Shown in pieces: positions 11,469 through 37,560 of a DNA stretch of 64,000 bases. Within the stretch, counting starts at the first letter, position 1. Each line of letters starts with the position of its first letter. Below the pieces are notes generated by a model, which was not told the DNA's origin, ran no database searches, and worked only from the letters and a program-made list of their open reading frames with translations. Position numbers and translations under genes: made by a program. The DNA comes from Amphiscolops sp. MND2022 (taxonomy: Eukaryota), in assembly GCA_964187785.1 (NCBI GenBank), contig OZ076409.1, forward strand, positions 11,100,001-11,164,000. The letters run 5' to 3'.

Positions 11469-11617
11469 TCATGTCATGAGATTGACGAACTCTTGGTAAT
11501 TCAGGTATCCGTCTTTGTCCTTGTCAACTTGGGAAATGAGTACGTCAATGTCTTCTGCGTCGATGTCCTCGCCCAAATTACACATCACAAACTTCAATTC
11601 AGCCGGTGAAACAAGCC
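11469..11617 (-). CDS. Calmodulin-like protein, last coding exon (end of EF3 and EF4)
   Basis: Acceptor ttttccag, phase 1. Translates (G)LVSPAELKFVMCNLGEDIDAEDIDVLISQVDKDKDGYLNYQEFVNLMT*. Confidence 0.9.
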
Positions 11618-11662
11618 CTGGAAAAATACAACTGGCCTCAATTCGTTATAACACTTTCGCCG

Positions 11663-12349: not shown

Positions 12350-12350
12350 T

Positions 12351-13603: not shown

Positions 13604-14308
13604 TTTTTAGTCAGCGTTTTTGAAAAAAATGCACGACTCTTAAAAGCGGTAGTTTTTTCGTCAGTTCAACACGATCGGTTCCCTTCTTGTTAACTGCACT
13701 TTTACCATAAATACTTTTCTCCGAAATAATTTTTATGTCTCCAAGGGGTCTTCGCTTCAATGTTCTGAAATCTTGCTACATATTGGATGTTAAAACATCC
13801 CAAAGGGTACAATTTTTCAAATTTTTGGACACTATGAGAATGTTCAAAATTCAAATTCGTTGTTTATTTCTTTTGGAATGTTTTAGCATTTCCACCTTCA
13901 ATTTCTCGATATTTTGCTTCGAAATGGATGTTAAAATAATCCAAAGGGTAAAATCTACCACGGTTTGTGGCATTATGAGACTGTTCTCAAAATATATAAA
14001 CCAAAACTTTCTTCACTGCTGTTCAAAACTTAGACGTAATATCCGCAGTAAACCGCTTTATCCGAATGATTGACGTTATATCTGAAGTAAATTGCGTTCT
14101 ACTAACGCAAGGAGAAGTAATTGAAACACAAGCGCTCCCATGCACGCTATATCCCAACTTCTGAAGCGGTTTCCGAACACAAAAAGAACGCTTTGAGTGT
14201 TTTAAACTTTTTGTGAAACTTCATCGAAAAAGTTCCTTGGCATATTTTGAAACCTTCGCGCTTTTGAGCCTGAGGAAAAACCCCGATTTGAGACGTTCCT
14301 GTCTTGTT
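13604..14308 (+). mobile_element. Older Helentron/HINE-like copy
   Basis: tttttagtcagcg...gcacgactc start and gagcctgagg...gacgttcctgtcttgtt end. Confidence 0.6.
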
Positions 14309-15591
14309 TGGGTGAATCTTGTCTGTCGGGCTATATCCCTTTACTTGGAGCAGTCTACATTTTTGCTGACTATTGGAAGAGCGATCCCAAGTTATACACA
14401 GTCTTTGAGAAAATCCATTTGAGGCGGTTGAATATAGATGATGCTCGAGTTTAAATAATCTTGTATGTTTTGAGTTAAAATTTCCATCCAGCATTCTCGA
14501 TATTGGGTTACTTTTCTTGCAATTAACTGGCTCCAACTTTCGAAACCTATTACCTATTGCAGAAAATTTCACCAAAAAATGATCGCCAAAGATTTTGCCC
14601 CGTGTTTGGTATGTAACGGCAATCTATAACAGGTGGAGAAACCTGAGGGGATGGGGCTTCCAACAAGTCCGTTTTGCCTCCCGAGAATAAAATACGTCGC
14701 GTCAGGAAGATGTTCCTGCTTTGCTTGAGTATTCGCCAACTCTGTCCCAAACTGTTAATGCCAACTATAACGGGTATCTTCTTTTCTGTCCTGAAGACAG
14801 ACTAAGATGTCTTCGAATTGGGGTTGTGGATAAGTAGTAAATTTCTATGTCTATCAGAGGTTTAATAAGAGTAGCTCATGAGCTAAAACCTTAACAACTT
14901 TCAATAATGTACCGATTTACGCTGACCACGTACGACAAGAAGAGGCTGAAGACACCTTGCGCGAGAATTGAGCCAATAGACTTATGATTTAGATTTCATT
15001 TCAAAAAGTTACCACATGCCAAATTATGCGAATAAGTTTTATTCTTTCTTGGCGCGATTAGTTCTTGTTAATTGAGTCTCCGTCTCTATTCAAAATACAT
15101 TCTGCAGGTGTTTTTCTCACGTTCTCTTGTTTTCGCGGTCTCTCCACGCGGTTGAGTTGCTCTGCTTTCTTTATTAATTCGGGACAAGACTTTTCAGAAA
15201 ACATGTTCGAAGTCAACGTGGCTTTGGCTTTTTCGAATTTTTCAGGTCACAAATGTAATAATCCGCTCTGCCAGGGTCTTCAAGAGGGTCACGTTAAAAG
15301 ATAAGGCATTGTGCAAGTTTTCTTTGTGATTAAAATTATCTTATTATGTTTTAATATCTTAAACACTTCCCGGAAAACTTCAAGAGAAAACCCAAGGGGA
15401 TATCAAGGTTGACATTGGTGATTAAACTTACAAAGAATTGAACAATTCTCTCGACACGCGTTAATTTTAACTAATACATTCAAGAAAAAAGTAACTGACT
15501 GCATGAAATCATGCAAAGCTAACAAAGTAAGATGAAATGGAGTGTTTTAAAAACAAAGTTTTAAATTTTAAAAACAAAACCATCTCCTCAC

Positions 15592-15708
15592 CATCGCCAT
15601 CTTGGTCGAACATGCGAAACGCTTCTTGCAGATCGTCTTCTAGTTTTCTCTCCTTCAATTTTCCCGCCATCATTTGCAGGAACTCAGGGAAGTCGATCTC
15701 GCCATTTC
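15592..15708 (-). CDS. Calmodulin-like protein, middle coding exon (end of EF2 and start of EF3)
   Basis: Acceptor tttccag and donor GTGAGG, phases 1/1. Translates (G)[38 protein letters not shown](G). Confidence 0.92.
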
Positions 15709-16310
15709 CTGGAAATTAACCCAACTCATACTACTTTTTTAGATTGCAAAGTGGTAAATACTCAACTACACGATTGTTTTTGGTGATATTTTTTTCCGCA
15801 TTCGCTCTCACCACAAAAAAATTCTCAAGTTCATCCAAGTTTTGATTGAATTATTAAAAAAAGGATAGGTGATCCGCATTGAACGTTTAATAATTGAGAT
15901 TGTTTTCAGCTGAACTTCAAGAAATAAGCGTTTTTCTATAAAAAGCTACGATGTTGAGTCACGAGTTTCAGATCTATTGCCCTCGCTAACAAGCTTTGGT
16001 TTAATTAATGTTGATATAATAACAAATATTCACAATTTCTGCTAGTGGTCTAAAAATGAATGTTTTCTACTTTTCGGGAGATACTTGAATGCCTTGGATT
16101 TTGATATCTGCAATTGCGAATCTGTGCAGACGTGCAGGATTTTTTCTGCAGGGTTCTGTAGAGATCGTTGCACTGAATCTTGAAGAATCTTACAGATTGC
16201 TGCATTTTTTTCATCATATTGACATAAGTGAGATTTCTCACCAGTTGTAAACATTTTTATCATTCATTTGACATCTCTGTGCAGTTTTTATTGTGTTTCT
16301 GATTCGGTCA

Positions 16311-16788
16311 TTTTTAGTTGGCGCTTTTATTAATAAGAAAACTCGACTGTTACAGACAGTTTTTTTTCTTTTTTTTTCTTGTGACAGTTTCGATTTTTGT
16401 TCAATTTGTTCAACTAAACGATTACCTGGGATCCGCATCCAAATTATGGGAAAGGGTCTCCCCTTTCGTTTTTTGCTTTTTAAACGTAACATACAAAACC
16501 GGACGAGACTAAAGGGCCCCCTTTCAATTTTTTTCGGTACTGGGCGACTTTTTTTGATTTTTTTCTCCAAAGAGTCCCCCTTGAATTTTATTGAAGTCCC
16601 CCATCGTAATATCCGGAGTAAAGCGCTACATCCGAACTTTTGACGTTATATCCGAACTATATTACGTTTCAGTAAGGAGGAGGCGATGTTCGAAAACAGT
16701 TTTTCACGAAAACGTCCCATGCATATTTTAAAAACTGCGCATTTTGAGGCTTAGATATAGCGCCGACTTGAGACTTTCCCGTCTTGTT
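16311..16788 (+). mobile_element. Helentron/HINE-like copy inserted in an older foldback repeat (arms ~16115-16180 and ~16790-16850)
   Basis: tttttagttggcgc start and gatatagcgccgacttgagactttcccgtcttgtt end. Flanking arms gaatctgtgcaga... and ...tctacacagattc are inverted copies. Confidence 0.7.
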
Positions 16789-16879
16789 TCTTCGAATCTG
16801 CAGATATCTGAAAAGTTCTGCAAAATCCTTCAGATCTACACAGATTCGAAAACCTGGGTCGAAAACCTTGATGGCTCAC

Positions 16880-18660: not shown

Positions 18661-18907
18661 GAACAGCTTCTTTAAGAAACCTGCAAAACTTCAAGGACTA
18701 AAATTGCCGCCAAAACTTTGATGAATCTTTCAAGCAGCTTGATAAAAGTCGAATACAACAGGTAAATATTTTCGCATTAAAGTTTCCGTAAGAGTTTTAG
18801 AAAATCATAATAAAAGTTGCTGGCAACATTAAAGTACATGCAAAAAGTTCAAGAAGTTTCAACCAGGGTATATATATATAATATTCAATAATATATATAA
18901 TATATAT

Positions 18908-19635
18908 TGTAACGATAAGCGCTGGCGCTTGAACCGCAACGTAGAGTGGAGGAACTAGAACAGCGAATATAATCTGGGACCTAGATCTCCGCGGCTCTAG
19001 CTCATTTTCCCTCCGAAGGAGCCAGTCCCAAGGTGGGGGAACCGTCTTGTAGGATACTCTCTGGCCTGGTCCTAGTCTGTAACTGCTAAAAGTAACAGGC
19101 ATCTTGCAAGACTCAAGACCACTGCTCAACTAGCCTTTAAAAATCGGGCTGAAAATCGATGAAGGTTGAACCGTAATATTGGAGAACCTGATAAAATCGC
19201 CAAATTGGATAAACAGATGTTAAACAACAGCTCTCGAGCATATTAATTAATCACATCGAAAAATACAATAAGAAATCAAGAGTTCAGAGTCATTTGATGA
19301 AAATCGACCTCAGCTTCCCAGCGCTAGCGCTATTTGCCACACAGGATACCACAGGGATACTCAGGCGAACATCTGGAACACTGGTTTCCTTTACTGTAGT
19401 AATGGATATCTCCCAGAGATAGACACAATACCGTGTTCTGTATGCGTTGGGGACGTCTCTTTGTCGTCTCCGGTGCTTGTTCGTCGCGAGCGGCGATTTC
19501 TGCTTTTCTGGGGTGCTTTTTCTGACAGGTACTTCGTCTTGAGCATGTTTGAGTGCCACGTCAAATTTGAACGAATTTTTGACAAAATTTCCAAACATGT
19601 CGGTTGATATTGCTGTACCAGAGCTTGCCGTTACA
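18908..19635 (-). repeat. 3' LTR of element A (728 bp)
   Basis: Matches 36833-37560 apart from about 5 substitutions seen by eye; TG...CA termini. Confidence 0.97.
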
Positions 19636-19651
19636 TCACTCCCCAGGCTCC
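19636..19651 (-). other. Polypurine tract of element A
   Basis: Minus strand ggagcctggggagtga directly abuts TGTAAC of the 3' LTR. Confidence 0.75.
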
Positions 19652-20395
19652 TGGCTTGTCGTCCCTGGCAAGCGGCGTCTGGCTCGTCTGGAAACTGCAT
19701 CACAGTGACTGCTGGGAACCATCATCCACACATCGGGGAACAAAGACGAGTCCTTGTTTTTCGGCAACAATTTCGGTCAGTTTTTGCGGTTTTTTCACGA
19801 AAAAAAAAGCTTACTGCCTAGCTATTTGTACAAAACACGAACGAGGTTTTAGCACCAGCTCGAGAGCTAAAGTTTTCAGCCGGTTAAAACTCGTTTGGGC
19901 AGCCAACTTACGTAAAAACGTTTTTTTGCGACCAAAGTCGGCTAAAATTTCCTTTTCTTACCATTTGATACTTGTAGTCTTCAATTCACTTCAGGCGGTT
20001 AAAAACTTTTTTTAGAGCTTGCGGGCTCTTACGGTGAACAACCAAATTGATGAAGAACACTAGACTAGAAAGAAAATGCAATCAAGAGGGATAAAACTTC
20101 TTTTGATTGTGACAACTCAAAAACACCGCGAACGGTGCGCAACAAAAATAGCAGTTTTTCTGAATAATAGTTTTTCTTTTCTTTCTGCTTGATAATTCAA
20201 GCCACTGGGGCAGGCGTACTCTATTGGCCGTACACCCAGTGCAACACTAATGGTACACTAATTATATAACCATAACTATGAACAAAAATTGCACTTTGTA
20301 CTGTAGCACCGTTCTAGATGGGAAGTTTTAAGGCGCTGTTTGTTGGCAGTTTTCGAGTGTATAGGGAGCGCGAACGCTCCCATTAGCGGCTGGGT

Positions 20396-23300
20396 TTATT
20401 GAGCCGAACTGCGTCGGGTCCGCTCTTTAGTGGCATCATCTGGGTTCTGTTCTGGGTTATCAGTCGACACTGACGCTCGACGTCGGGGAGAGACTTCTGT
20501 GGCAACCGTTTTAGAGTCTGACAGATCTTCGGGGAGCGACAACTCGGCAATGGGCTGCACTAGTGCTGCATTGGGAGTCAACTCGGCGGCGTGCTCTCCG
20601 GACTGCTTGTGCAAGGACTGAGGGCTAGTTCGCGACGAAGACGGGCCAACTGGTTCTGGCTCCAAGTGGTGGGTTGGAAGGTTAATTGTGATCGGTTGAG
20701 AGATGGGCCGATCCAAAGACATCGCCATCGTTGGGGCGAGCATGGTAGGCGCGAACGCCTGTTGTCTCGCTATTTCTGCTCTACCTTCTACTGCTAGTGC
20801 GACTCGGCGTGAGATCCACCCAGTTTGGCTCCAGAGCTCGCAAGCTCTCTTCCACTTAGGGAAGCTAGCAATCTCCAACTCCAGACAATACTCTTCCCAT
20901 CTTGCTCGTTCTGTCGAGCCCAACACGGAATTGATCTCATCATGCTGGACGATGGACATATCTCCAGACATAGTCATCTTTCCCGTAGGCTTCCATGCCG
21001 ACTTCCGGGGGAACGGGATAACGCGGGATTGGAGATTCCTTTGCCTGATCTGAGCAGCGCCTTCGATCCATCCTGGGATCTGGGCTGATTCCAAGTGCTG
21101 GATTTGACGGTTGAAAATCTCCGGGGCGCGTCCAACGGGTTTCGCCCTTGGCCAACCTAACGGCTCCTTCCAATAGCGGTTCGGGAAGGCGGTGCATTTA
21201 AAGCAGTACAAAGGGTCCACAGGTGGACCAGCACTAGTGCTGGCGCGAATCGCCTTTCTTATGAATTCCTGGCTCCACGGGAATCTGAAGGGGACTCCTT
21301 CCAAACTGAGAGGTGCGGAGTACCAATTCACAGGCCCATGTTCTCGAAGCAGAGGACATGCTTTCCTGGTGCGCGCGCGCAACAAACCCATCAGGTTCTC
21401 CTCCAACTCTTTTTCGGATTTCACGGTCGTGTACCCATGCGGCACTTCACCACTCAGCACGGCATGTATTACCCTTTGATATGCCAGTGAGGGACGGCCT
21501 CGCAGATAGGTGCTAAAGGAGACCATGTGCACTTGGACTGCTGTTGCTAACGGTTTTGTAGGGTATCGGCACACGCCCACTGCGCCAAAGATGGGGGCCA
21601 AGACAGGAGCCATGGCTGCCACGAAATCCTCTACCTCAGCCAGGGTGAGATCAGCAATCTGCTGCGGCAAGGGGAATCCTGCCGTTTCCCGTGGGATCTG
21701 CTGGTCTGAGTTGTGTAGTGGTTGGGATTGGTCCACGCCCACGAATAGACCGGAGGCGAACACCAGGGTGGAATATAGCCAGTGCTGGATCGACGCACGC
21801 ATGCGCTCCAGTTGGGCGGAATAATCTTGTTGGTCCTTGGAGGTCATTAAATGTCCCCAGCGGGTCAGGCTGCGTAGTTGTCCTTGTGCCAGGACCAAGA
21901 AGCTGTAGAACACGGTGAGGTCGCAGGCAATCACGATGTCGACTAATAGGGCTAGTGGTCCGGCTACGAACTTCGTTGGGCCCATCGCTAGCGCGAGCGC
22001 TAGTATTTCTCCGACAGTTGCCTCTCCAATTGTTTCTAGTAGCTTGTCCGTTTGCGTAGGGGTCAGCGAAATCTCGGAAGTAAGCACTTCAAGGTTCCAT
22101 CCCAGACCAAGACTGGTACAGAAGGCTTCCAATGGACAATTGAGCTCTCGAGCTGCTTCTGCTAGAGTCCTGGTGGCAAACCTAGTTTTGTACCAATAGG
22201 CGTAAGTGGTAGCTGCGGCATCGACCTCTGCCTTCAGATTTGTTGCTTCAATCGCCACTATGCACCGCAGTCCTACAGGCAGCTTCACGGGCTCGATTCC
22301 TGAGGCGAAGTGGATCTGAGGGATTGTTCTCTCAACGGTGCGCGCTGCAGGCCATGCACCGATTTGTTTTGTCAGTTCGGCTAACTCTGCACGCACTGGG
22401 ATTTCTTTGTCCTTTCGCACTAGCCAATTGTACCGACGAACAGCCACTCGTTCGGTCACATTTGACTCTCGGGCGATGCGGTTGCCGTCAAGGTCAAAGG
22501 CCATTCTGCCCATCCGCATTCCATGATCATAGAGGATAGCGTCGTCAATGGTTAGCTGGGCATTTCCCGAGCGTTTTATAGCCACGAGCGCTCTAGACAC
22601 GGCGGCAAAGAAGGCTGGATACGACAAGGTATCTGGGCGCAGGTCCTCTCGGTCCACAGGCAAGTTTGGTGCACAGATGGCGAATTCGACTCTGCGCGCC
22701 TTGCATACCTCCAGCAGAATGTAGACGAACTGCTGCAGACTTCGTGGCCAGTACATAAATCCTGGTGGGGATACAAAGAGCGCGAGCGCTCCCAGACGAC
22801 CCCTGAGGATCCCTGCGGCACGTTCCATTGCACCAACTACCTCATTTACTAGGGCTGCAATGTCTCCAGGTCGTCGGGCATCGGACATTATAGCGTCCAG
22901 GTCACGCAGCAACCCTTCGAAGGCCATGTGATCCAGAAGATTGGCAAAGATCACGCGCTGTGGAGGTGGTTCCTTCTGTGATCCCCTTAAGTTTGGATCG
23001 TATATGGCTCCAACCATCTCAGCGATCTCAGCGAAGCGAGACAGGGGCATAGTCAGTACCAGCACGTCAGGCATCAAGTTGTCAATAGGCAGGTCACTCC
23101 GGCAGGTAGAATCAACCGCCATGCAGTAGCGCGCGCGCTGCAGAGCTGCTTTCAATAGTGGTTTCAGAGATCTCAAGTTGCGGGCGTAGCGGGCGTTCGC
23201 TTCCCATGTCTCACCTTCTCGCAACACATACCGTGCGGGGAATTGCTCGGTGATGTTATGTTGCAGGGGTGCCATGTAATCGTTAGTTGTCGTGGGCAGC

Positions 23301-24703
23301 TGCTCTCGAGCACGCTGTTCCCAAGCCTGCTCCGACATATCTGCGTCCCGGGGGCGCAGCGAACGCGTGACCTGCGCCGGTATCGTAGTTCGATTAATTT
23401 CCTTTTGCTCCGTCTCAGTGGGAGGGGTCCTTTTCTTTATAGCGCATTGACTGGGGTAGAGATGCTCAGCCGCCATCCAAATGCGTTTGCTATCATTGGT
23501 GACTACTGAACCGGATACGTCATCAGATGGAGGGAGGAAGGCTGGAGGACGGGCCTCCTCCACCGTCTCAGGTATCTCCAGGGACATATCTATTGGATTC
23601 GTGCCCGAGGGCACAGAGCTCACTTCCGAGCCTGCATCCGGATCTCCATACTGCTCGATTGCGTCCGCTAGAGACATCTGAGGCGCGCCTCGACCTAGAT
23701 GACCCACTCGGTACGGAGGCCTAGGGATGACTAAACTTTTCAGCTGGGGTCGAGGTACATCAGCGCGCTCGTCGGGAGGGGGACGACTAGTCGGGCTCTC
23801 GGTTACTGAGCCAGCTGGGGTGACTGAGGCAGTTTCTTCAGTTAGTCGCTTTCTCCCGGCTTCTTCTCGTGTGCCAGTAGCAGCGCTTGCGCTGTTGCTT
23901 GGTCCGGCAGCAATTTCCACATCCATAGATGCCGTCTCGACTAAGGGAGCAGGAGGGTCACAGCCCGAGGGTTGAACAGCAGCTTGCAGATAAGTGGCTA
24001 GTCCAGGGATTCTCTGCTCTACGGCATGAACAAAATCGGAGGAGTTCGGATAGTTGGCCACTGCTTGCAATGCCACAATTACGGCCTGTTCGCTGGTACT
24101 CCTTCCGGTCAGCTCTGGGTTAGGTATGGGTGGTAACCGGGACCCCGAGGGCTCCCGATCAGAGACTGGTGCACTAGTAGTGGTTTGCAGTACCATGTGT
24201 GGCGCTCGATATGAGGTCCCAAAGGCAGGTGAACCGGAATAGGTTGGCGTCATTGGTACTGGTTTTGGTGCTGGTGGGGGCAATGCGACCATCTGAGGAG
24301 GTGGCATCGTTGCAATGCTGGCAGGCACCATACACAGGGAGGCTTCTTGCTCGAATCTCGTGCCCTGGCTGGGCCCGAGCATCGTGGTAGAGCGTTCATC
24401 CAGGAATTGATGCGTTAAGTCGTGGCCATCCCACGCATTGTTTTGGCAGGCTAGCGTGCGACGGTAACCGGCTACTTCCGTCACCAGAGACACAGATACA
24501 CCTGGCAGCGTCTGCATCGTGTCTAGTTGAGTGAGCAGGGCGGCCACGCCCGCTACCGCTAACGGTGAGAGGCCGTTCCTCAGTCGTTCTTCTACATATT
24601 GGACTTGATTAGTCCTCTGCGCTCGCGCAGGCAATTCTTGAGACCTATTGGTGTGAAGTCCCGTCGTGGGAATAGGCACCGTGTTGTTGGGGTAATAGGC
24701 CAT
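20396..24703 (-). CDS. ORF3 of element A, 1435 aa, function unknown; central degenerate SGNH/GDSL-hydrolase-like domain and Pro/Ser-rich disordered termini
   Basis: Uninterrupted ORF in the env position. Motifs CMAVDS, VLVLTMP, VIFANLLDH, LFVSPP and DLRPDTLSY follow the order of the SGNH blocks. No obvious signal peptide. Confidence 0.85.
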   Translation of the reverse strand: MAYYPNNTVPIPTTGLHTNRSQELPARAQRTNQVQYVEERLRNGLSPLAVAGVAALLTQLDTMQTLPGVSVSLVTEVAGYRRTLACQNNAWDGHDLTHQFLDERSTTMLGPSQGTRFEQEASLCMVPASIATMPPPQMVALPPPAPKPVPMTPTYSGSPAFGTSYRAPHMVLQTTTSAPVSDREPSGSRLPPIPNPELTGRSTSEQAVIVALQAVANYPNSSDFVHAVEQRIPGLATYLQAAVQPSGCDPPAPLVETASMDVEIAAGPSNSASAATGTREEAGRKRLTEETASVTPAGSVTESPTSRPPPDERADVPRPQLKSLVIPRPPYRVGHLGRGAPQMSLADAIEQYGDPDAGSEVSSVPSGTNPIDMSLEIPETVEEARPPAFLPPSDDVSGSVVTNDSKRIWMAAEHLYPSQCAIKKRTPPTETEQKEINRTTIPAQVTRSLRPRDADMSEQAWEQRAREQLPTTTNDYMAPLQHNITEQFPARYVLREGETWEANARYARNLRSLKPLLKAALQRARYCMAVDSTCRSDLPIDNLMPDVLVLTMPLSRFAEIAEMVGAIYDPNLRGSQKEPPPQRVIFANLLDHMAFEGLLRDLDAIMSDARRPGDIAALVNEVVGAMERAAGILRGRLGALALFVSPPGFMYWPRSLQQFVYILLEVCKARRVEFAICAPNLPVDREDLRPDTLSYPAFFAAVSRALVAIKRSGNAQLTIDDAILYDHGMRMGRMAFDLDGNRIARESNVTERVAVRRYNWLVRKDKEIPVRAELAELTKQIGAWPAARTVERTIPQIHFASGIEPVKLPVGLRCIVAIEATNLKAEVDAAATTYAYWYKTRFATRTLAEAARELNCPLEAFCTSLGLGWNLEVLTSEISLTPTQTDKLLETIGEATVGEILALALAMGPTKFVAGPLALLVDIVIACDLTVFYSFLVLAQGQLRSLTRWGHLMTSKDQQDYSAQLERMRASIQHWLYSTLVFASGLFVGVDQSQPLHNSDQQIPRETAGFPLPQQIADLTLAEVEDFVAAMAPVLAPIFGAVGVCRYPTKPLATAVQVHMVSFSTYLRGRPSLAYQRVIHAVLSGEVPHGYTTVKSEKELEENLMGLLRARTRKACPLLREHGPVNWYSAPLSLEGVPFRFPWSQEFIRKAIRASTSAGPPVDPLYCFKCTAFPNRYWKEPLGWPRAKPVGRAPEIFNRQIQHLESAQIPGWIEGAAQIRQRNLQSRVIPFPRKSAWKPTGKMTMSGDMSIVQHDEINSVLGSTERARWEEYCLELEIASFPKWKRACELWSQTGWISRRVALAVEGRAEIARQQAFAPTMLAPTMAMSLDRPISQPITINLPTHHLEPEPVGPSSSRTSPQSLHKQSGEHAAELTPNAALVQPIAELSLPEDLSDSKTVATEVSPRRRASVSTDNPEQNPDDATKERTRRSSAQ

Positions 24704-24715
24704 TATATCATAGGT

Positions 24716-24735
24716 CTAAAAAGGATTACCGTTAG
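24716..24735 (-). promoter_or_regulatory. Putative branch point and splice acceptor for a subgenomic ORF3 mRNA
   Basis: Minus strand CTAACggtaatcctttttAG|ACC TAT GAT ATA ATG: acceptor 12 nt before the ORF3 ATG and in frame with it. Confidence 0.65.
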
Positions 24736-24990
24736 GCTTACTAGGTGCATTGTGGGGAGAGCTTAAGGCTCATCATCCAATTACAATGGTACAAAGATGG
24801 CTCCATAAGGGAACCGCAATAAGTTTAAATTGTAGTTCAACTAACTAACTAGAACATAAAGATAGGAGTTATTTAACGATACGTTACAAGGTAATCATTC
24901 CATGGGATAGTTTAAGACTTCCTCCCAGACATGACAATTATCGGGGTGGATAAATTAAATAGGGGGCAATAGAAAAGAGTTTTGGGCGGG

Positions 24991-25420
24991 CTACTCCGGC
25001 CCTATGCTCAGAATGGACACATACACGTGGTTATGCAGCACGACGTGAATGCCAGTGCCCTCCAGCAAATTCGTTAGGGTATGGTACAGGTTTACCAATG
25101 AGAGGGCGGGTCGCTCTGGATCCAGTATAGGTAGGTGGACACTCGTGGATCCTTTCTCTATCAAGCGCTGTATCAAGTGCGTCATACAACGTAGGTAGTC
25201 GTCGGTAAGCAGCGGCGCACGCTGGTTTGCTCTGATTATCAGTAAGTGAATACTCTGATTGGGGTTTGGGTTGATATCAGGGAGAATGGTGAGAATCTCC
25301 CCCACCTTGGGACGTAGGGAGAACACATTCTCCTTGCCGCATTCTCGTAGCACGTACCGTAGGGACACGCTAACACCATATCGCCTTCTACTTGAAGAAA
25401 ATCAGTCACATCGTATGAGA
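24991..25420 (-). pseudogene. TARG1/OARD1 (Poa1p)-like macrodomain at the Pol C-terminus, frameshifted near 25362
   Basis: LSYDVTDFLQVEGDMVLACP//LRYVLRECGKENVFSLRPKVGEIL...IHLLIIRA...DYLRCMTHL...GSTSVHLPILD...LSLVNLYHTLTNLLEGTGIHVVLH follows the TARG1-type layout. Confidence 0.7.
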
Positions 25421-28400
25421 GGTGCTCTGTTGGGGCTGGATGCAGAATTCCCGGGTAGATAATCTCTCTCCCCGGCCCATTGTCGGCAGGAGAGCACACG
25501 CGGGGCGTACGCCCCTGGATTGCAGCCAGGTCTTGCCACACCGAGCGTGGCATCGCTCGATTATCACTGCTCGCCCTGACCCATGCGTCTAGGGTGCTCA
25601 AAGCGGCTTTTGAGGGAAGTGGAATCTCAAAAGTATGAGTCCACTCATCCAGCAATCTAATGCGAGGATAATTGGTGAAACAAGTGATGATTAGTTCCAA
25701 CCACCACGCGAATTTCACTTTGCCACGATACCAGTCTATAATGTGGAAGCAAAGTATCAAGTCCGCGGTAGTGAGGGTCCTCAGACCTTCCAAGCAGGAC
25801 AGCAGGTGCAGTGGTTCCACTATTGCCTCCACTCGTGGAGCAGTAACCAGCAACCACCAGTGCGGCGCTGGGCTGTATACTCCGCCCGGATCCACGTGAA
25901 TTCCGTATTTGTCACAGAGAAGATCAGCGGTGATGCATCGGACCATTTGCACAGGTTCCCGCTCGAAGTTGAAGGGTCCAAACGCAATATTGCTGGGTAC
26001 TGGGGGCATCACCGTTGCGAGGGTAAACTCTAACCCTTTTCCGTCGCTAGTCCACTCCTTGAATCGAGGACACGGAGCTTTCGCTACTCCAGGTAATGAT
26101 AACTTCTCCAGAATAGTATCCACGGGATGGTCTCCGTGTCCTTCCAGGGAGGAATAAGTCTTCTCAGCTCTCACCGTAAGGCGATGTACTAGATTTTCTC
26201 CCCGCTCCGGAGGAACTCCCCGGGCTCCAGTGGGAACCCTCCGGTTCTCATTGACGGCTAGCAAGCAAACACAGTCTCGCAGCCCACAGGTCCCGCATTT
26301 GTAGCGTGGTTGCCGCCTGCTTCTCAACTGGTATCGGGGGACCTCAGAAGCCTCGGTCGGCTTTGCTGTTTCCGATGGCATTGTTGTTGTTGTTTCCTTC
26401 TTCCTCGTTCTTGCCTTCGCTCTGACCAGCCGTTTTCGCGTTTTGGGTGGTCTCCCCCTCCCCCTTTTGAGAGAAGGAGCGGTCCCCGCTCCGGGCAATG
26501 TCGTGGGAAGGGTAGGCACATTGGACTGAGCGTCGTCATCCTCGGTGGCGGACTTCAGAGGGAGGGAAGGAGCGGCCGGCCAAATGGGATAGTTATTGAG
26601 GAAACTCGTCAGTGATGGACTTGTCAGTAATTGGGCCGATGTTCCCAATAATGAGGGCTGTTTTTCGGGGGAAGATATTTGTGGTGACGGAAAGCGCGCG
26701 CGCTCATGGTCTGAGAATAGTTGAGGTAGATGATGGGTAGGTGATATTGATTGGTCTGAAGGGGGTTGGGGGACTTCGGGTTCCCTACGATCAGCATCAA
26801 CGGGATTAGGAGGTACCGGTAACATGATTTCGGATAGCTCATCGTCAGTGCCCGAGGTCGAGTAGTCGAACTGCTGGTAGTGCATGCGGGAACCTCCAGC
26901 ACGCAACTTTGTGCGCAACCGGGTATCCATCCAATGGTGCTTGCGCGAAGGCAAGGACACGTCAGATGCTTCTGAAAGTAGTTGTTCAGTTTTATATGAA
27001 GGCTGGGACTTATCGTCGTCAACCACATCGATAGAACGTTCAGGGTCAGGGTCCATGAGTACCACTATTTCGCCGCTGTCCGCTTGCGTGGTGGCGGCGA
27101 GCTCAAGGGGCCCACTGTGATGAGGTTTCAGGCGCTCAAAATGAACCTTTTGGCCTGTGTCCAACACGTAGACACGTCCTTCTTGAAAGACTTGTACTAC
27201 TTTGTGCGGGCCACGCCAGGCGCGCATCAGCTTGGGGGAGCCTTTTTGCGGCACGTAGCGGCAAAAAACCCAGACAAGCTCTCCTGGCTGGTAGGCTCGT
27301 GCTCGAATAGCACGATCATATTTCAATTTTTGGCGTAATTGGGCCTGGTGCGTATTGCGCCGGACCAAGTCGTGAATTTCTTGTTGGCGAGCCAACACTT
27401 GATCCACGTATGCTTCATGCGTATCAAAGGACTTGGCCGCAAATTTAGGGTACAAAAAGGTGAGGGGGATTGCTTTCTCAACACCCCTTGTTAACATGTA
27501 GGGCGAGAAGCCTGTAGTGGCGTGCCTGGTAGAATTATAGGCACCGATCACTTCATCTGAGCATTGGTCCCAGTCGCGCATGCGGCGCGCGCAAAAGACT
27601 CGCAACAGGGTTAAGAGGGTTCGGTTTTGCCGTTCCACCAAACCTTGAGTTCGTGGATGTCCGGCAGTGGAGGTCATTTTAGTGACGTGAGCTGCCTTTA
27701 GGAACTCATTAGAGACTTCAGCAGTGAGGTTTGGAGCATTGTCTGATTGCATGCGAGTGGGGGTGCCGTGGCGGGCAAACCATTTCTGCAGCAGCAATCG
27801 TGGAGTGGTCACTGCGTCATAGTCGTGGTGACTACAAGGGACTGCCTTTGCAAATTTAGAGAAATGGTCGATGATGACCAAAATGCCGGTGTTGTTATTA
27901 TCAGAGGGGCAGATTTTTAAGTGGTCATACTGGACCAACTCGTTGAAGTAGCCACTCTGAATGTTTTTCAGTTGAAATCGTACGTCACCAGGCTTGTCAC
28001 GTACTTGTTGGCAGGTGAGGCACTGGCCGACGTATCGACCGACACTGCGCCGTATGCCGGGCCAAGTGTGGCGCTCTTGAATTCGAGCTACCACCTTTGA
28101 GATACCTTGGTGTCCCATGGCGTCGTGTGCACGGAACAGAATTTCATGCTGGTACAGCTGAGGCATTATGATCATGCACGGACGTTCGTGCAATGGGCGT
28201 TGGGTGGGGGAGTATTGCACGCAAAGGACGTCATTCTTGTTTATGAACAAGAGGTCCTTTTTCTGGCGAAAATAGTTACGTGCGAACTCACGCACGTTCT
28301 CGGGAAACACATCGTTATCTAGGGATTCACACTGCACGAGCTTCTTCAGTGCTAGCACTTGGACATCGCGGTTTTGGGCTAGGACCAAATCCTTGATCCC

Positions 28401-29576
28401 ATGTACGGTATGAGTGTGTTCATGGAGCTCGGTGTCAATGTCCTTGAGGGCCATGATCGACTCGCGCACGCCACCAGGAGAGTTCTGTAGCATGGCGTTA
28501 CTCGTTCCCGCCATAGAATAGATGGTGCGAGAGGGGACATTTACTGCATGTGTTGGCAGCAGGTAATCCTCGGTCGCCTCAGTGGTGACGTCTATCCAGT
28601 CTTCAGGATAGTCTGGGTAGAAGTCCTCGTGCTTTTGCAGCACGGGTGGAGGCTTGGGCGGTAGAGGTGCGGCTAGCGCCTTTGCCTGTCGTTCTCGCTT
28701 GTTCTCTCGTTGCACACGGCGAAGCACAAGGAGTGCTTGGTCAGGAGCCTTAGGCTCCAAGTTCTGCAGATGCGGTGGTAGGTCAGGATGATTTGGAATT
28801 ATTCGACCTTGCAGGTCGAACCAGGGGGCTACGGGAAGGTTGTCGAATTCCTCGGCCGAGAGGAAATTCCAACGCTCTCCGGTAGCTGGCAGCTGCGCAA
28901 GCTGCTGTTCTCGGCATCGATATTCGTTGGTTCGTTTGCTCAAGCCAACAGCATTGCGGTGTTGAGTTCGCGGTCTGTGTTCCACACGAAAGTGATACCT
29001 GTCCAGCGTCATGATCCAACGTCCAATCAATGCTTGGTCCGTGGAGTAGGTTTTCAACCAGGATAGGGCTTGATTATCGACTCTCAGGGTGAACTTTCGG
29101 GGGCGTAGGAAGTAGTAGGCTGCAAACATTTCCAGCTTGGGTGCCACATATTTGGCTTGGGTGGTGGTCAATTTCTTGCTGCCGTATATGATCGGTCGTA
29201 GGCGTCGCTCTCCTGGAGCTCCTTGCCACTGGTGTAGGATACCGGAAATGGCAACGGCGCTGGCATCGGTGTCCAGCACAAACTCTTCTTCGGAATCAGG
29301 CTGCGCGAGCGCAGTCGCCTCGATCAATGCTTTCTTGATTTCGTTGAAGGCCTTTTGCTGGTCAGGGCCCCAAGCAAACGTGGCATTCAGTCCAGTAACG
29401 GCGTGGAGGGGCGCAACCAGCTTGGCATGCTATGGGATAAATTCACGATAATAATTAGCGAATCCCAAAAAACTTTGCATCTCTGTCTTGTTGCGAGGGA
29501 TGTCCCAGTCGCGCAGTTTGGCAACAGCCTTCTGGTCCGGTTTGACGCCTTCTTCGGAGACTACGCGTCCCAGATA
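25239..29576 (-). pseudogene. pol: Element A pol, 3' part: RT thumb/connection, RNase H, integrase and a long C-terminal extension; in-frame TAG at 29430-29432
   Basis: FLGFANYYREFIP; RNase H FVLDTDAS; IN HHCC (HDAMGH...CLTC), catalytic YDH/QSDN/GLVERQN and WRGPHKV; later KRGRGRPPK and CGTCGLRDCVC. Confidence 0.93.
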
Positions 29577-32500
29577 TTAGATTTCTGGTTTCATGAAGTC
29601 GCATTTGGCTACGCGCATCTTGAAGCCAGCCTCGCGGAGGCATTCAAAGACCTCGCGCAGACGCGCCATGTGATCTTCCACAGTTTCCGTTGCTATAACT
29701 ATGTCGTCGATGTATGCCATGACCATGCTGCCTTTGCGATTGACTATTTTTTGTAGCGCTGGCGCTATTGCTCGCTGGAAGGTGGCTGATGCATTGCACA
29801 AGTCGAATGGCATTCTTCGCCATTCGAAGAGTCCCAACTCACAGGCAAAAGCTGTCTTGTGGCGGTCCGCCTTTCGCAACGAAATCTGCCAGAAAGCCCA
29901 GGCAAGATCTATGCTAGTGTAGATCTTTGCATTGCCCAGTCGCGCCAGCCTTTCGTCGATGCGGGGCAGGGGGTAGGCATCCTTAATGGTTACTTCATTC
30001 AGCGGTCGGAAGTCACAGCAAAAACGCAACTCCGCGCTTTTCTTTTTTACCATTACGATACCACTTGCCCAAGGGGACAGTGAAGGTTGTATCATCCCTA
30101 AGGCCAGTAGGCTCCGCACCTCCTGGTTGGCTCGTTCAGCCTTTTCGGGGGACATTCTGCGAGCGCCTTCACGGTGCGGTACAGCCCCAGGCTCTACCTC
30201 TATCGTGTGTTTAGCAATGGTACAGCGGCCAATATCCGCCTTACGCTTCATGAATAGGTCATCAAATTCGTTAAGAATGTTGTCCAAGGACTCGCAGGCG
30301 CTAGCGCCCCAGAGTTTTCTAACTTCTTGCAATTGAGAATCGGGCCCAGGGATCGGGGCCAATAGGTCCGGATCGGTGCGCTTGCGAATCTCGCGCTCCG
30401 AAAGCCCCGCTTCACTTGGATCCGTCGAAGACAAAAACTCAAATTCGGATGAAGAAGTCAACTCAGAAGCAGTGGATAGATTCATTTCACTGTACACTTT
30501 ATAAACAAAATTTGCTCGACTGTTGTCGGCTTCAGTTTTGTGGTCAGTTTCTGCAGTAGCATCCAGATTTTGGGGCACAGCCTGGTATACTAAAGACACA
30601 GGCACTACCGTGCCCAGGTGGGCACCACATCGTACACGCTGCTGGTTGCTGGTGAGGTTTATCAGACTCACATACAATGTTCCTGTCTCACTGACAGTGG
30701 CCACGCTGTCCTCTAAAAAGATGGTATTTTGCAATGAGGGATCAGACAACGAGGCGTTAAGCGCCACGGTCTGGAAAATTAATGGTTCAAGCGCGTTGGT
30801 GACAAGTTTAGCCTTTGCCACTGTACGCTCGAAAGGCTGTAGGACCAGGTCACTGTCCAGAGCAATGGGAGTAGTTAGCGAAGCAACACCTACCTGGGTG
30901 TGTGCATGATGCCAGACGGGCTTCACTGGTGCTCGCACCACTATCTTCATGGAGGTTAGATCTACCAGGACTTGGTAGGAACGGAGGAAGTTTCGACCCA
31001 GCAGAAAGTCCTCCACGCCCATTGCGTCATCTACCACGACGAAATTGGTTTCGAGTTCATACCCTCCCAATTGGAAGCGTACCTGCTCAGCCAACCCGAA
31101 AGTCTTTATCGTCTTCCCATTGGCAGCGTACAAATCAATTTGATAGGGTTTCAGGACCGCACCGGTCCGTGCAGCTACCCGGTTAAAGGCGGAGAAGGTT
31201 AGTATGGACACCCCGGAACCAGTGTCCACCAGGCCTCGCAGTGGGATAGGTGCCGCATGGGGCACCACAAAGGAGATAACAAGCGACGCACGCTCATCTA
31301 TCCGCGCTTCTCCGGTGGGTTCTTGGTGATTGATATTATAGCATTTCAGTTCTTGAGGTCCCAAGCATAAGCCGGGTGGGAATACATCTACCCCCACACA
31401 GGCCTCGAACTTCACGTCCACGCCGTCCATCGTTGCACAAACCGGTACTGGCGAGTATGTAGTCAGGGTCTCCGACTCTCCAGGGACGTACCACTGCTTT
31501 GGGTGGGGCAATTCCATCCGGTTATAGAGGACAGATAGCTCAACCCAGAGTTTCGCCAAGGTTAGCGTTGGTCTACGCACCTGCTCGGCTGCCAGCATCA
31601 GATGAATCGAGATCAACGTTCTCCCTTGCGGATCGAATGTGGTGGGCTCTAAGCACGTTTGAATCTGCTTTGTTCCGCATGTGACTATCAGTGGGGGATG
31701 AAACGCTGGAGGCTCCGCTGGGTGCAGCATTAACACGCGATCATCCTCCAGGGGTACAGTGTGGGCGGCCACACCAGCGGATTCCACCTCAGCCGATCGA
31801 TTGTAGGCCAATTCATCATTAGGCCTTGGAGCTTGAGAATGCTCACCGCAGGGGACATCCACATGGTCATAAACTCCACAGTGCGCACACTGATGAATAC
31901 TTGGGTAACTCTCCAACACGCCATCAGTTACATCTTCAGCAGTGACTTTCACGCCTTCTGTCTCGGGAGCTGCCACTGGTTTGCGAGCCTGATCGCGGGT
32001 GGGACAGTCCCGGGCAAAATGCCCAGCTTGACCGCAGTTGAAGCATGCGCCAACGGGTAGGCGTGCCGCAGGCTGCGCTGCAGCCTGATTTGGCGGGGCA
32101 TTGTTCGCAGGTGGGGGAGGCATTACTCCTTGTGGTAACACCATTTTGTTGGGGGGTAGCGGCGCGAAGGGATGAGGTCTAGACCTCATTGCTAGTCTGG
32201 GGTCATAGGGTTGAGGGAATTGGTTGGGTTTGGGGCGATTGCGCTGCAATTGGCGGGTGGTGAAGCGAAGGGATTCCACCGTAGGTGGTTCGGTCAGGAA
32301 GACTTCCGAGGCATATACTATAGCAAGTTCCCGCCTCAGCGCTGGGTCTCGTACGCCTTCCATGAAGCGCTGGAGGATTTCATAGCGCTTGGTAGTGATT
32401 GTCTCTTGCGGGAATCCTTGACTTCTAAGACCCTCTAGAGCGTCTAAATACTGCATCCAGTCTTCTTTCTCATGTTGAATGCGGCTCTGGAAGGCTTGTC

Positions 32501-32762
32501 GTACTTGCATACGATTTCCTCCAGCGCCAAAGCGGCTACATAGTAATTCAAACACCTTCTCGGGGGTGTCACGTTCGGATTCTGCTTTGTTAATGATGTA
32601 GTTGCGAGCTTCACCTTCAAGGTGACCAATGATGCTCCAGGCCTGGTCCTCGGCTGAGACCTTGGTTTGCGTTCTCTTCAGGTATCTCTGCATAATAAGG
32701 ATCCACCTATCAATGGATCCGTCTTTGGAACCGCGATATACATTAGGTCTCGCCTGAGCCAA
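29577..32762 (-). pseudogene. pol: Element A gag-pol, middle part: capsid-like region, CCHC knuckle, protease, dUTPase-like segment and RT; ends at a premature TAA
   Basis: CFNCGQAGHFARDC; LVDTGSG and FLLGRNFL (protease); YPLPRID, RMPFDLCNA and YIDD (RT). TAA replaces Lys in EI*YLG and the frame continues in phase into the next ORF. Confidence 0.93.
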
Positions 32763-34309
32763 GTCTCTGCCGGCGCTAACTCTTTTGACATCGCCTTTGA
32801 TATGGCGGCCGTGAATCTCAGCTGCTCAGGGGATATGGCTTCTCCTTCTTCGGCCTTAGCTTCCCCTTCGCGCGTCCTGTCATGACTACCAAGAGTGGCT
32901 TGTATTGACAGGTCAGCGATTTCGTCCTTCTTGCGAGTGCTGCTAGCACAGGGAGTGCCCGAGGGTAGTCCATGATCGGCTGACAAGTCCGCGGTCAAGT
33001 ATAAGAAGTCTGGTCCTGACATCGACATGGGGGCAGTTGCACACGTTGCTCCCTCGGTTTGAGAACCTAGGGTCGCCTTGGTGTTGGATAAGTCGACTTC
33101 AACCGAAGAATCAAGATAGATAGTTGACATCGGATCCACGCCTTGATCTCGAGTAGTGCTCTGGGCTGCAGAAGGCATTGATGACTCTGCTGAGTCGTGA
33201 TGTCCCCTCATCTGCACTCGTGCAGGCTTGCGCTCTGCCTCAGGCGTGGCTATCACCAAATTTCCGGCTACTCCTTCATCTTTCCGGGGCGCAGGCACTG
33301 CCGGCCTGGAAGTGCTAGGCTTCAACGCGCTTGGCAGTTCCGATTTCACTACCTGGCTCGGGTACGTCGGCTCCGAGATACGGACTGGACCTCCATTCCG
33401 CACGCCTCCACTTGCACTGGGCTGCCGCGGGAGTGACCTCTCACGCCTCATGACATCAATGGCATTGAGCACTGTGTGCATCTGATTGCTCAAGTCGTTG
33501 ATCTGCGTTTCCACGCGCAACTCGCGAGCCATCAACATGTCATTCATCTCTTCCATCCGGTGACCCAATGTGTCCACTCGAGCATTTTGCACGTTCTGCG
33601 CGGTACGCAATTGATCGCTGACTTGCAGGCCCTCACGCATCGTCGTCTGCATCACTTTAATATTTTCCACGATGGCAAGATGTTGCTCATTGCACTCAGC
33701 ACGAGTGCTGGCCAGACCTGCTAGAGCCCGTTGGGTTTCGGCTTGGGCATCCAATAACGCTGCCTTGTATACCGAAGACCGTTGCGACGAGGCCAATGAG
33801 CCTGTCATAATCCTGACACGGGATGCCTCTTGACGTGGTTCGCCTACCTGCAGTATGGGTGGTCGCACCTTCTTGTGCTTTCCGTAGGCACAGACCCGGG
33901 TAGGTCCTCGAGTGGTCCCGAGTCCTCGCTGTCTCGCGTAACTCATGCCTCCCACATAAGTGAGGTCCTGCTCCATGTCGGTCTGTGAGCCGAGTTGTGT
34001 CTCTCCAGCCGGGGGTGCGCGCGAGCACCCTTCCTCAGCCACCAATTCATCGGTTGCATTCGAATTGGGCCAGCCCTCCTCCACTTCATTGGCTCTATCG
34101 CGGCAGGTTTCGTCGACCCACTGCTCGGTCCGACGCGAATTTTCGGAAACACTGGAGTTCTCTGAGGGAGGAACCATAGCGGCCAATTCCTCTTTTCGCT
34201 GTTGTTCGATAGTGACTTCGTCAGACATGTCGTCTGAAAAACGCGAACAATCTATCGTGACCCACGATTGTGAACCTGTATGGGGCACCGCCATCAGTTC
34301 GGTGGCCAA
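32678..34309 (-). pseudogene. gag: Element A Gag N-terminal part (543-aa ORF, coiled-coil and disordered), separated from the capsid region by a frameshift near 32775
   Basis: Heptad-rich LLDAQAETQRAL...QINDLSNQM segment. Overlaps the next ORF at KELAP/RDLAQARP. Confidence 0.8.
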
Positions 34310-36799
34310 CGCGCTTATTAATAGCGATCGAGTTACCGCTCACGATTACTCGGAAAACTCAAATTGGGTCGCCGAACGTACCAGGGTCTTCAATTCGAAG
34401 CTGATCCCTTGGTCGTCCCGGTGAGCACTTAAGAAATTTGATGTTACTCAATGTCCTAGATTTTTCGAAACACGTTCTAGAGCTCGTAGGCTGTTCAAAT
34501 TTGCACAGCGTTTTCCCACAAGCTCACTGGGCCAGAAAATCAACCTGGTTTCGGGCAGAAAGTCTCCAGTCACTCACAGGAAGAATTTCAAAGAATTTTA
34601 GGATTTTTCAAAATTCGCACGACAACACTCAAGAGGCTCGTGTGTGCGCTAGAAGCGCTGTATCAAGCCCAAAATTGACCAGCAGATCTTAGGTACACGT
34701 AGCTTTACGAAAATGAATACAGTTTTGAGCTGCGCTCCTTCAACACAGTTTCACCTAGGTACTGACGTGCGGTACCACGATGTACCGAAATACACTGTTT
34801 TCCACGATTTTTTTTAGATTGCGGTCCACTGGAAAGAGCTAGCAAGCTCAAATTCTCTGCAGCAACGTAGAAACTAGCACAAGTTACGATGGTGGGCTGC
34901 AATATAGCCCCACCCGTCGGCTAAGGTGCCCGGGTTACTCGGAAAAATTAAGAAAAAACTGACTTTTTGCGCGCCTTCTTGGGTGCCACGTTTTTCCTTT
35001 TTTCTCAACAAGTATCACACAGATCGGCACCAAACTTGGAAGTTTATGCCAGTGGGCACCTAAAATGGCACTGATATGGTTGAATTGAAGCGCGAGCGCT
35101 TATTTGAGGTTTCGACCTACTATGTACGTTGTAAACGAAAAAACACTGTTTTTGACTACTTTTTTTTACAAATTGACCAAGAGGATCACCTCAGAAAGTG
35201 ATACGGCGGGCAAAATGGGACCAACGTGTTGCCCCACTATCCGTAGCACTGGGATAAACCCTCAATTGGTTGTGCCCGTTAGGTATAGGGCACTGACAGT
35301 CCAGCAGTTTTGGTTTTTTTCGGCTTTTTTATGCTTCTCTGAAGTCGAAACGTCAGAGAGCTTTTCTCGACTTTGGTGAGCGATACGCTCACCAAATTTT
35401 CGGCACTAACGTTAATTTTGGTGGTGATTACGAAAATGCAACAACTTTTTGGCTAGGGTTCAGGAATCGATGACCCGACCCTAGCTCAGAGACAGTCCGG
35501 TTTTGTGGAAAATTGATCAAATTCAGTGCGTTTTTCCACTTTTCTCAGCACTGAATGGGAGTTTTTACACGCGATTTTCACCACCACGCGTTATTTTTAC
35601 TACAAAATCGAAAATGAGAGCGCTCAAGCCCGCTCTCTTCGAATGAGCTTCGCTCTGGGTGTTTTCGGTTAATGCACTTTCTCTGCTCGAAAATGTCAAA
35701 ATTCACAAGTTTTTCGCACTGTATCAGCCCCAGGCTGCCTGAGTCCGCTACAAAAGTTGCAATTAGTATCCTGAGGGTCAACCACACTTGGGACAGTGCC
35801 GTACACTGTCGTTTTACACTTCCATACTCGTGTACGTTCACATTTTAGGTGCCTTTTTGGTCAAATTTCCACTTTTTCCACATTTTTCGGCATCAAATTG
35901 GCACTTTTATCACAATCAAAGGCTTCAACTTCACCTTTCGTGCCTCGTGCCGGCTTTCTCGAGCCTTGCAGCTGCTTTTTCAAAACTTTCCACCAAACTT
36001 TCCTGGCTTCTTTGAGCACTAGTGCTCGAAACCAAGAAAAACACCAAAAAACGCAAAAATGAGGTTTTTTTCTCCAAGTGCTATCTTTTTCGCAGAAAAG
36101 CACTTCGTAGGGTGTCGTTACATTTATAGTAGAACGTCACTGACCTGCACCAACGATTCTCCATCGAAAGAGGTGTATTTTCAAATTTTTCGCCAACCAT
36201 TCTCCATCTGAGCGACGCATCTGGTCACAGGGGGTGCATCTTCACCACGTTATTTCTCCACATCTAGACCAGACAGAAACACGCGGGTGGGACCATTAGC
36301 ACCGTCTGTTGTTGCACTTGCTGTCCACTAAAAACAATGCCTCTAGGACGTCTCCACGAGAAATGGAAATAGGAAGTAGGCAACACGAGATTTGTCCCCT
36401 CCTTCGCCTTGCTGGAGTATGGTCAACCATCCATCCGTTACCCTCTCACATGGCATAAAATGGCTGAAAATAGCTCAAAAAACCTGTTAGACACCCGTAG
36501 CCACGTGCTACGGTCCTCTACACCTGCAAAAAGGTACCCGCTGATGGGTACACAACACATCACACATATAGAGCGATTTCCTTCTAATATGCCCAAAAAT
36601 ACCATTTTCACACCTGAAAACACGTTTTCTTCGGCATTTTCTCTGGTTCGACGCCTCTCCCAATTCCAGTAAGACGTAATACGACTAAAAAGAGGTAAAA
36701 CTCTGCTTCTCTCTCCTGTCCAGAGTCGAAAACGGGCTTGGCGCTGATCACCAGGGGGCCAGATCTTTTAAAAACCGCTAGGGAAAGCTTCCCAAGACG

Positions 36800-36817
36800 A
36801 TCCCTCTGTGGTCGCCA
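36800..36817 (-). other. Primer-binding site, tRNA-Arg-like
   Basis: Minus strand TGGCGACCACAGAGGGAT is complementary to a ...ATCCCTCTGTGGTCG-CCA tRNA 3' end, recalled as resembling eukaryotic tRNA-Arg(UCG). It lies 15 nt from the LTR. Confidence 0.75.
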
Positions 36818-36832
36818 AAAAATGAGTTTCTA

Positions 36833-37560
36833 TGTAACGATAAGCGCTGGCGCTTGAACCGCAACGTAGAGTGGAGGAACTAGAACAGCGAATATAATCT
36901 GGGACCTAGATCTCCGCGGCTCTAGCTCATTTTCCCTCCGAAGGAGCCAGTCCCAAGGTGGGGGAACCGTCTTGTAGGATACTCTCTGGCCTGGTCCTAG
37001 TCTGTAACTGCTAAAAGTAACAGGTATCTTGCAAGACTCAAGACCACTGCTCAACTAGCCTTTAAAAATCGGGCTGAAAATCGATGAAGGTTGAACCGTA
37101 ATATTGGAGAACCTGATAAAATCGCCAAATTGGATAAACAGATGTTCAACAACAGCTCTCGAGCATATTAATTAATCACATCGAAAAATACAATAAGAAA
37201 TCAAGAGTTCAGAGTCATTTGATGAAAATCGACCTCAGCTTCCCAGCGCTAGCGCTAGTTGCCACACAGGATACCACAGGGATACTCAGGCGAACATCTG
37301 GAACACTGGTTTCCTTTACTGTAGTAATGGATATCTCCCAGAGATAGACACAATACCGTGTTCTGTATGCGTTGGGGACGTCTTTTTGTCGTCTCCGGTG
37401 CTTGTTCGTCGCGAGCGGCGATTTCTGCTTTTCTGGGGTGCTTTTTCTGGCAGGTACTTCGTCTTGAGCATGTTTGAGTGCCACGTCAAATTTGAACGAA
37501 TTTTTGACAAAATTTCCAAACATGTCGGTTGATATTGCTGTACCAGAGCTTGCCGTTACA
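36833..37560 (-). repeat. 5' LTR of element A (728 bp)
   Basis: Direct repeat of 18908-19635, followed on the minus strand by the PBS. Confidence 0.97.

Follow-up and report, generated by a model that had tools for sequence, protein, structure and literature searches.

The question raised by a Ty3/gypsy element in Amphiscolops sp. MND2022 is what a retroelement polyprotein might do with a macrodomain at its very end. The element lies in a stretch of 64,000 nucleotides (GenBank assembly GCA_964187785.1, contig OZ076409.1, positions 11,100,001 to 11,164,000 of the forward strand), called the window below and numbered from its first letter. An original prediction, made from the letters alone, joined two frames across a small deletion into a ~140-aa domain of TARG1-like layout at the extreme end of Pol, and proposed an ADP-ribose reader, possibly directing integration to PARylated chromatin or opposing host ADP-ribosylation, sitting where chromoviruses carry a chromodomain. 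The fold of this terminal domain (macro-2), its position in one open reading frame (ORF) with the integrase, the substitutions in its pocket and their conservation are established directly. The explanation proposed here, held at a probability of roughly 0.5, is that macro-2 and a shortened repeat upstream of it (macro-1) form a captured, rebuilt and duplicated pseudo-enzyme acting as a docking module. Coordinates of the features are collected in Table 1.

The full-length element occupies 18908-37560 of the window on the minus strand and has the marks of Ty3/gypsy: long terminal repeats (LTRs) with TG...CA ends, a 5-bp target duplication (TATAT) on both flanks, and the order protease-reverse transcriptase (RT)-RNase H-integrase. 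By Pfam, the ORF region 29577-32825 encodes a CCHC knuckle, protease and RT, and the Pol frame (25239-29429, minus strand) encodes RNase H and integrase. The window copy of gag-pol is dead, given a gag frame change near 32770 and two in-frame RT stops between 29430 and 29579; a further lesion lies at ~25360, and at this junction the Pol frame overlaps a second frame (24991-25401). Searched against proteins of 239-2000 residues, the second frame had 47 matches, each of them a single protein that also matches the Pol frame, which bears out the joining of the two. Two anchor motifs are 5 nt apart in the window and 11 residues apart in 45 of the 47 sisters; the window copy has therefore suffered a net loss of ~28 nt, bases that the sisters still have, and its frame is shifted, in agreement with the small deletion read from the letters. 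The loss takes out the first phosphate-binding loop region of macro-2. In a natural sister of 3113 residues gag-pol is a single ORF, in which the protease, RT, RNase H and integrase families are found; it aligns to the window from 34255 down to 25000 and ends with the terminal macrodomain (residues 2961-3100), followed by 13 residues and the stop, so that the placing at the extreme end of Pol stands and this intact sister runs through the domain rather than stopping before it. Since the frames are continuous in the sisters and this ORF is intact, gag-pol normally ends with this domain, and the break is damage to the window copy. Macro-2 starts near 25424 and has its core down to ~25033, beyond which come one more conserved strand, the last, and the stop codon. 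A programmed -1 frameshift is rejected as the cause of the break, because the sisters are continuous and the two slippery-type heptamers found, at 25267-25270, are ~90 nt beyond it.

The fold becomes visible through distant relatives. A profile of these matches TARG1 in the PDB at E 8.8e-8 (profile 27-165 against chain 6-142), with the next non-TARG1 match at E 0.21; a single distant member matches TARG1 at E 6e-5, and comparison of predicted structures also places macro-2 with TARG1 and DarG. By fold, macro-2 belongs to the ALC1/TARG1/DarG class, having a macro alpha/beta/alpha fold nearest to TARG1 and DarG. The TARG1-like layout of the original prediction holds by these routes, but not from the window piece alone, which has no macrodomain match in Pfam or the PDB. 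No macrodomain match was found in Pfam for 19 close sisters, or in the PDB for a shallow profile of 23 close sequences (A1), and Pfam Macro (PF01661) matched 1 of 76 members, at E 0.3 and 11.5 bits, below the gathering cut-off of 22. A Macro cluster in the ESM Atlas at 0.89 is a lead only. Matches in PHROGs and NCBIfam were weak (the best was phrog_335 "phosphatase", E 0.002, for P0174), tblastn against phages found partial matches no better than E 0.007, and related loci were not found in viral or JGI metagenome contigs. Structural matches in BFVD are to macrodomains of RNA viruses, poxviruses and phages, without a clear winner as the source of the domain.

In TARG1, K84 is the nucleophilic lysine and D125 resolves the lysyl intermediate. 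Both residues are catalytic, the GxG loop is a diphosphate clamp whose dipoles stabilise the diphosphate, and the family pattern is TKx(30,35)Px[IL]GxGxD (PMC6397177). Pocket positions were counted in 145 rows from 275 stored proteins (at least 70% coverage and at least 25% identity to P0010), many of them decayed, related and non-independent copies; further loop counts used 165 domain copies, and the pattern scan 312 stored proteins. The profile alignment to TARG1 has no gap near the last loop, and in the alignment of P0174 its Gly stands opposite TARG1 G123. HLLIIR (25248-25231) aligns with TARG1 YLITK and places Arg at K84, as the original prediction had read it; the position is Arg in 137 of 145 rows and Lys in 1, and T-K occurs in 2 of 165 copies. 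In the last loop, the G121 position is Asp in 127 of 145 rows, G123 is Glu in 120 (Lys in 6, Gly in 4), L124 is Arg in 127, and D125 is Pro in 114 (Gly in 6, Ser in 6), with Asp outside the six commonest states. At G43, in the first phosphate loop, Gly is found in 3 of 137 ungapped rows and is lost in 134. At 70% non-redundancy (34 rows), K84 is Arg in 29, G121 is Asp in 27, and G123 is Glu in 19, Lys in 4 and Gly in 3. The GxG loop occurs in none of the 165 copies, D-x-E/K-R in 139 and D-x-G-R in 6; the TARG1 pattern occurs in 0 of 312 stored proteins.

These changes can be set beside mutants of human TARG1, in which G123E, G43E and I44E abolish ADP-ribose binding and catalysis; G123E also fails to be recruited to poly(ADP-ribose) (PAR), and both G123E and G43E retain RNA binding (PMC5928194). 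By alignment, most family members naturally carry a substitution of this binding-dead type beside a second acidic residue, and macro-2 falls outside the TARG1 hydrolases; it is probably not a canonical ADP-ribose reader. From the TARG1 mutants it appears likely that the domain neither hydrolyses nor canonically binds ADP-ribose. The class of fold and the Lys-to-Arg change in the original prediction stand, but its reader role fares poorly, as it had missed the replacement of GxG by D-P-E-R-P (Asp121, Glu123, Pro125) and the loss of Gly43.

Macro-1 was compared with macro-2 using sequence sets split by position, which kept macro-2 segments out of the macro-1 set, and hhalign matched the two (89%, E 2.3e-6). 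In the fold search the putative macro-like region of macro-1 is covered by rows 43 and 49 of the structure list. The loop signature (Asp and Arg) is common to both repeats and to members at ~30% identity. Macro-1 and macro-2 are probably related as repeats, a relationship of moderate strength, and a tandem arrangement of two macro repeats is probable.

Macro-2 is C-terminal to the integrase in the same ORF, ~600 residues past a motif that we take to be GPY/F-like (Pol-frame residue 738 against 1336), and macro-1 begins ~420 residues past it. Chromodomains closely follow the GPY/F motif in chromoviruses. The likeness to a chromodomain's position is therefore partial: the side of the integrase and the shared ORF agree, but the distance does not, and a long spacer and macro-1, which the original prediction had overlooked, lie between. 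No chromodomain family was among the Pfam matches up to E 1 for the window proteins and sisters, and by this mark the element is not a chromovirus. Within the spacer, Y/H-x-L-R is found just upstream of a Cys motif in 24 of the 27 stored proteins that have the Cys motif, and is kept in distant members; the two are possibly a separate chromatin anchor or tether plus a small zinc site. The Y-x-L-R motif presumably resembles the Arg anchor of foamy-virus Gag. In that Gag motif an invariant Arg anchors on the H2A/H2B acidic patch (PMC6042332). With other candidate chromatin contacts in the spacer, targeting may be wholly independent of the macro pair.

In the explanation proposed here, a Ty3/gypsy ancestor would have captured a TARG1/DarG-class macrodomain at the pol end, and the diphosphate loop would have been rebuilt to D-x-x-R-G before the domain was duplicated; the upstream copy would then have shrunk, and Glu would later have become fixed at position G123 of the terminal copy across most of the family. 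The pair forms the C-terminal end of the gag-pol translation product, after the integrase and a basic spacer. Most likely it would be a pseudo-enzyme, with neither hydrolysis nor canonical binding of ADP-ribose, and would serve as a protein-docking module joining the integrase or pre-integration complex to a host or element protein, or the docking could be done by a tail freed by the element's protease; chromatin tethering and shielding of the element from host restriction are examples of its possible purpose. A docking or tethering role is proposed from position and by analogy. In four members with Glu123, K+R number 11-14 against 16-18 for D+E and the isoelectric point (pI) is 5.5-6.0; a domain acidic in the members measured favours a protein partner over RNA.

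Several results weigh against the docking pseudo-enzyme. Asp is retained at the D20 position, which we take to be the adenine-binding Asp of macrodomains, in 114 of 129 ungapped rows, and the adenine subsite may still be in use. Six copies, including the most TARG1-like distant members, retain Gly at G123, and P0186 retains Gly at G43 as well; the most TARG1-like Gly123 members, putatively from retroelements, sit on contigs of 1.1-1.5 kb. The G123E data come from human TARG1 and not from a rebuilt D-P-E-R-P loop, and SCO6735, which has Gln in place of K84, is an active enzyme (PMC9967889), so loss of the Lys alone is no proof of inactivity. For macro-1, its profile alone found no macrodomain in the PDB, and no match to macro-2 of P0010 or P0276 at an independent E-value (iE) < 0.05. 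Across 11 long sisters (45-55 non-independent pairs, with approximate region borders), mean identity is 91.8% for the integrase end, 82.5% for the spacer, 91.5% for macro-1, 89.7% for the linker and 87.2% for macro-2, and macro-2 is thus less conserved than macro-1 or the integrase.

A captured TARG1-type eraser, its phosphate loop rebuilt under selection with Asp, Glu and Arg and the domain duplicated in tandem, may have become a reader of a different ligand, such as a chromatin peptide, basic or modified, or a nucleic-acid end with an adenine. It would then direct gypsy integration, or serve counter-defence, as a macrodomain counterpart of the chromodomain; this is a tentative possibility, and if it were true the natural Gly123 and Glu123 members would preserve the two sides of a change from reading ADP-ribose to a new specificity. 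It is rather unlikely that the pair binds nucleic acid or an adenine-bearing ligand outside the canonical ADP-ribose mode, with RNA, cDNA ends or a nucleotide lacking diphosphate at that place as candidate ligands, and so aids packaging, reverse transcription or target capture. Conservation of Asp at D20 and of Arg at K84 and L124 would suit such binding, as would the basic character of two distant G123 members (pI 8.6 and 9.3) and the RNA binding kept by the TARG1 mutants; tandem SARS-unique macrodomains are also among the fold matches (rows 35, 39 and 44). SARS-unique macrodomains bind nucleic acid and Paip1 (in part the subject of the title of PDB entry 6YXJ) and are not known to bind ADP-ribose. 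The four measured E123 members are, however, net acidic, and RNA binding by TARG1 is thought to occur through basic patches (PMC5928194).

A reader of ADP-ribose or PAR without catalytic activity, in line with the original prediction, steering integration to PARylated chromatin or masking ADP-ribosylated targets, is slightly less probable again. It would agree with the TARG1 fold, the Asp at D20, the Gly123 of 6 in 165 copies and the use of tandem macrodomains as PAR readers (PARP14 macro 1-2 is among the fold matches), and conserved Arg residues near the pocket might substitute for backbone amides as phosphate ligands. The acidic side chains at 121 and 123 stand, however, in the very loop whose dipoles stabilise diphosphate (PMC6397177), the usual mutant for abolishing binding in TARG1 is G123E, which fails to be recruited to PAR (PMC5928194), and Gly43 is nearly always lost.

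That the captured enzyme decayed and the pair lingers as folded filler is improbable, although all catalytic and binding glycines and residues are changed, most recorded copies are fragmentary, and macro-2 is just ~5 points above the spacer in conservation among close sisters. The new loop signature is shared by both repeats and persists at ~30% identity, macro-1 is as conserved as the integrase end, and both repeats are still present in the distant members P0288 and P0307, with identities of 50-59% and 39-40%. The share of conservative changes is highest in macro-2 (0.47, against 0.30 in the spacer). This pattern of conservation in the sequences argues against simple decay. An active eraser removing ADP-ribose from protein or DNA by altered chemistry, against host PARP defence, is very improbable: class members such as SCO6735 (PMC9967889) can act without the Lys and RNA viruses, poxviruses and phages have structurally similar domains, but K84, D125 and the GxG loop are all altered and G123E inactivates TARG1 (PMC5928194).

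The nearest known systems differ from the macro pair in several respects. Human TARG1 (also called OARD1 and C6orf130; PDB 4J5R, 4J5S, 2LGR) is ~12% identical to macro-2, which has Arg for K84, Pro or Gly for D125, D-P-E-R for GxG and mostly no G43, is fused to a retroelement polyprotein, and has a second repeat upstream. Close folds are yeast Poa1p (6LFQ) and the macrodomain of DarG (5M3I, 5M31, 5M3E); DarG has a partner toxin and the gypsy element has none, and DarG K80, required for removal of ADP-ribose from thymidine (PMC9967889), corresponds to the Arg of macro-2. The chromodomain of chromoviruses is likewise a borrowed folded module C-terminal to a Ty3/gypsy integrase in the same ORF, but the macro pair is of unrelated fold and 420-600 residues past the GPY/F-like motif. 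The coronavirus SARS-unique domain (Mac2/Mac3; PDB 8UFM, 6YXJ) is of another class and origin, and offers an analogy of use only. Epsilon-like endogenous retroviruses of teleosts have additional macrodomain ORFs (PMC4977317, citing Basta et al. 2009), likewise a capture by LTR elements, but as separate ORFs, whereas the gypsy pair is tandem, rebuilt and in frame at the end of Pol.

Macrodomain capture by an LTR element is therefore already known; the tandem, pocket-rebuilt and Pfam-invisible pair on an integrase tail appears to be new. Among the matches listed in the open-licence literature there is no description of a TARG1-type domain at a gypsy Pol end; subscription journals and Repbase Reports are outside that scope. 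Since TARG1-like domains are frequently annotated within retroelement polyproteins of arthropods, gypsy elements with a macrodomain may well have been described before. Accessory domains of gypsy integrases decide insertion sites and few kinds are known, while this domain escapes Pfam in a multicopy family comprising several diverged subfamilies. Macro-2 naturally bears the laboratory substitution that switches off ADP-ribose binding in TARG1, and the natural Gly123 and Glu123 members are an engineering-free way to study how a macrodomain leaves ADP-ribose biology. Docking on a host protein, if true, would be a new route of target-site selection or counter-defence, and repeated capture of macrodomains by LTR elements, including the fish retroviruses (PMC4977317), hints that ADP-ribosylation acts on them.

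Table 1. Features of the gypsy element, in window coordinates
Feature	Position	Strand	Remarks
5' LTR	36833..37560	-	728 bp, TG start, CA end
gag-pol region	24991..34255	-	gag with CCHC knuckle, protease, RT, RNase H, integrase, tail
Integrase zinc-binding and core domains	27654..28163	-	in intact copy, one ORF with macro pair
Basic AT-hook-like stretch	26442..26468	-	Pfam AT_hook in sisters, E 0.33-0.37, below cut-off
Conserved Y-x-L-R and Cys-x2-Cys motif, further Cys	26260..26333	-	post-integrase spacer (core 26283..26333)
Macro-1, shortened upstream macro-like repeat, ~105-115 aa	25650..25958	-	loop D-x-x-R-G at 25722-25736
Linker between repeats, ~75 aa	25425..25649	-	two predicted helices, lower confidence
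Macro-2, terminal TARG1/DarG-fold macrodomain with rebuilt pocket	24991..25424	-	broken in window copy
Lesion site	25357..25361	-	net ~28 nt loss against sisters; breakpoint ambiguous by a few bases
Strand with Arg at TARG1 K84 position	25228..25248	-	R in 137/145 rows
Rebuilt diphosphate loop D-P-E-R-P for TARG1 G121-C-G123-L-D125	25108..25134	-	ungapped register
1439-codon open ORF	20396..24715	-	between pol and 3' LTR
3' LTR	18908..19635	-	99.3% identity to 5' LTR

The 1439-codon ORF has no family match in Pfam, PHROGs or NCBIfam, and no match in the PDB (residues from 21500-23200) or the ESM Atlas (residues 520-800). It has a Pro-rich N-part and a long alpha/beta-looking middle, which by eye we assume to be reminiscent of SGNH-type folds, and it is intact despite the four lesions in gag-pol. 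At the other end of the element, ~490 residues lie N-terminal to the gag capsid-like region in the same ORF (32771-34255, minus strand); they are 67% identical to P0276, against 85% for the remainder, and are therefore a fast-evolving N-terminal extension. A primer-binding-site-like sequence at 36800-36832 (minus strand) starts with TGG, 16 nt past the 5' LTR rather than adjoining it, and presumably resembles the 3' end of tRNA-Arg. The insertion lies within an AT-only microsatellite-like stretch (18880-18907, 37561-37575), a single site that supports no preference.

Elsewhere in the window, a decayed RT from another gypsy element lies at 50482-51495 (minus strand). Two ORFs at 59782-62542 (plus strand), the first with a BED-finger-like Cys/His pattern by eye, suggest a DNA transposon. 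An AT-rich repeat several hundred bases long recurs in dispersed, diverged form across 4100-16800 (families D2-D8, D10 and D12).
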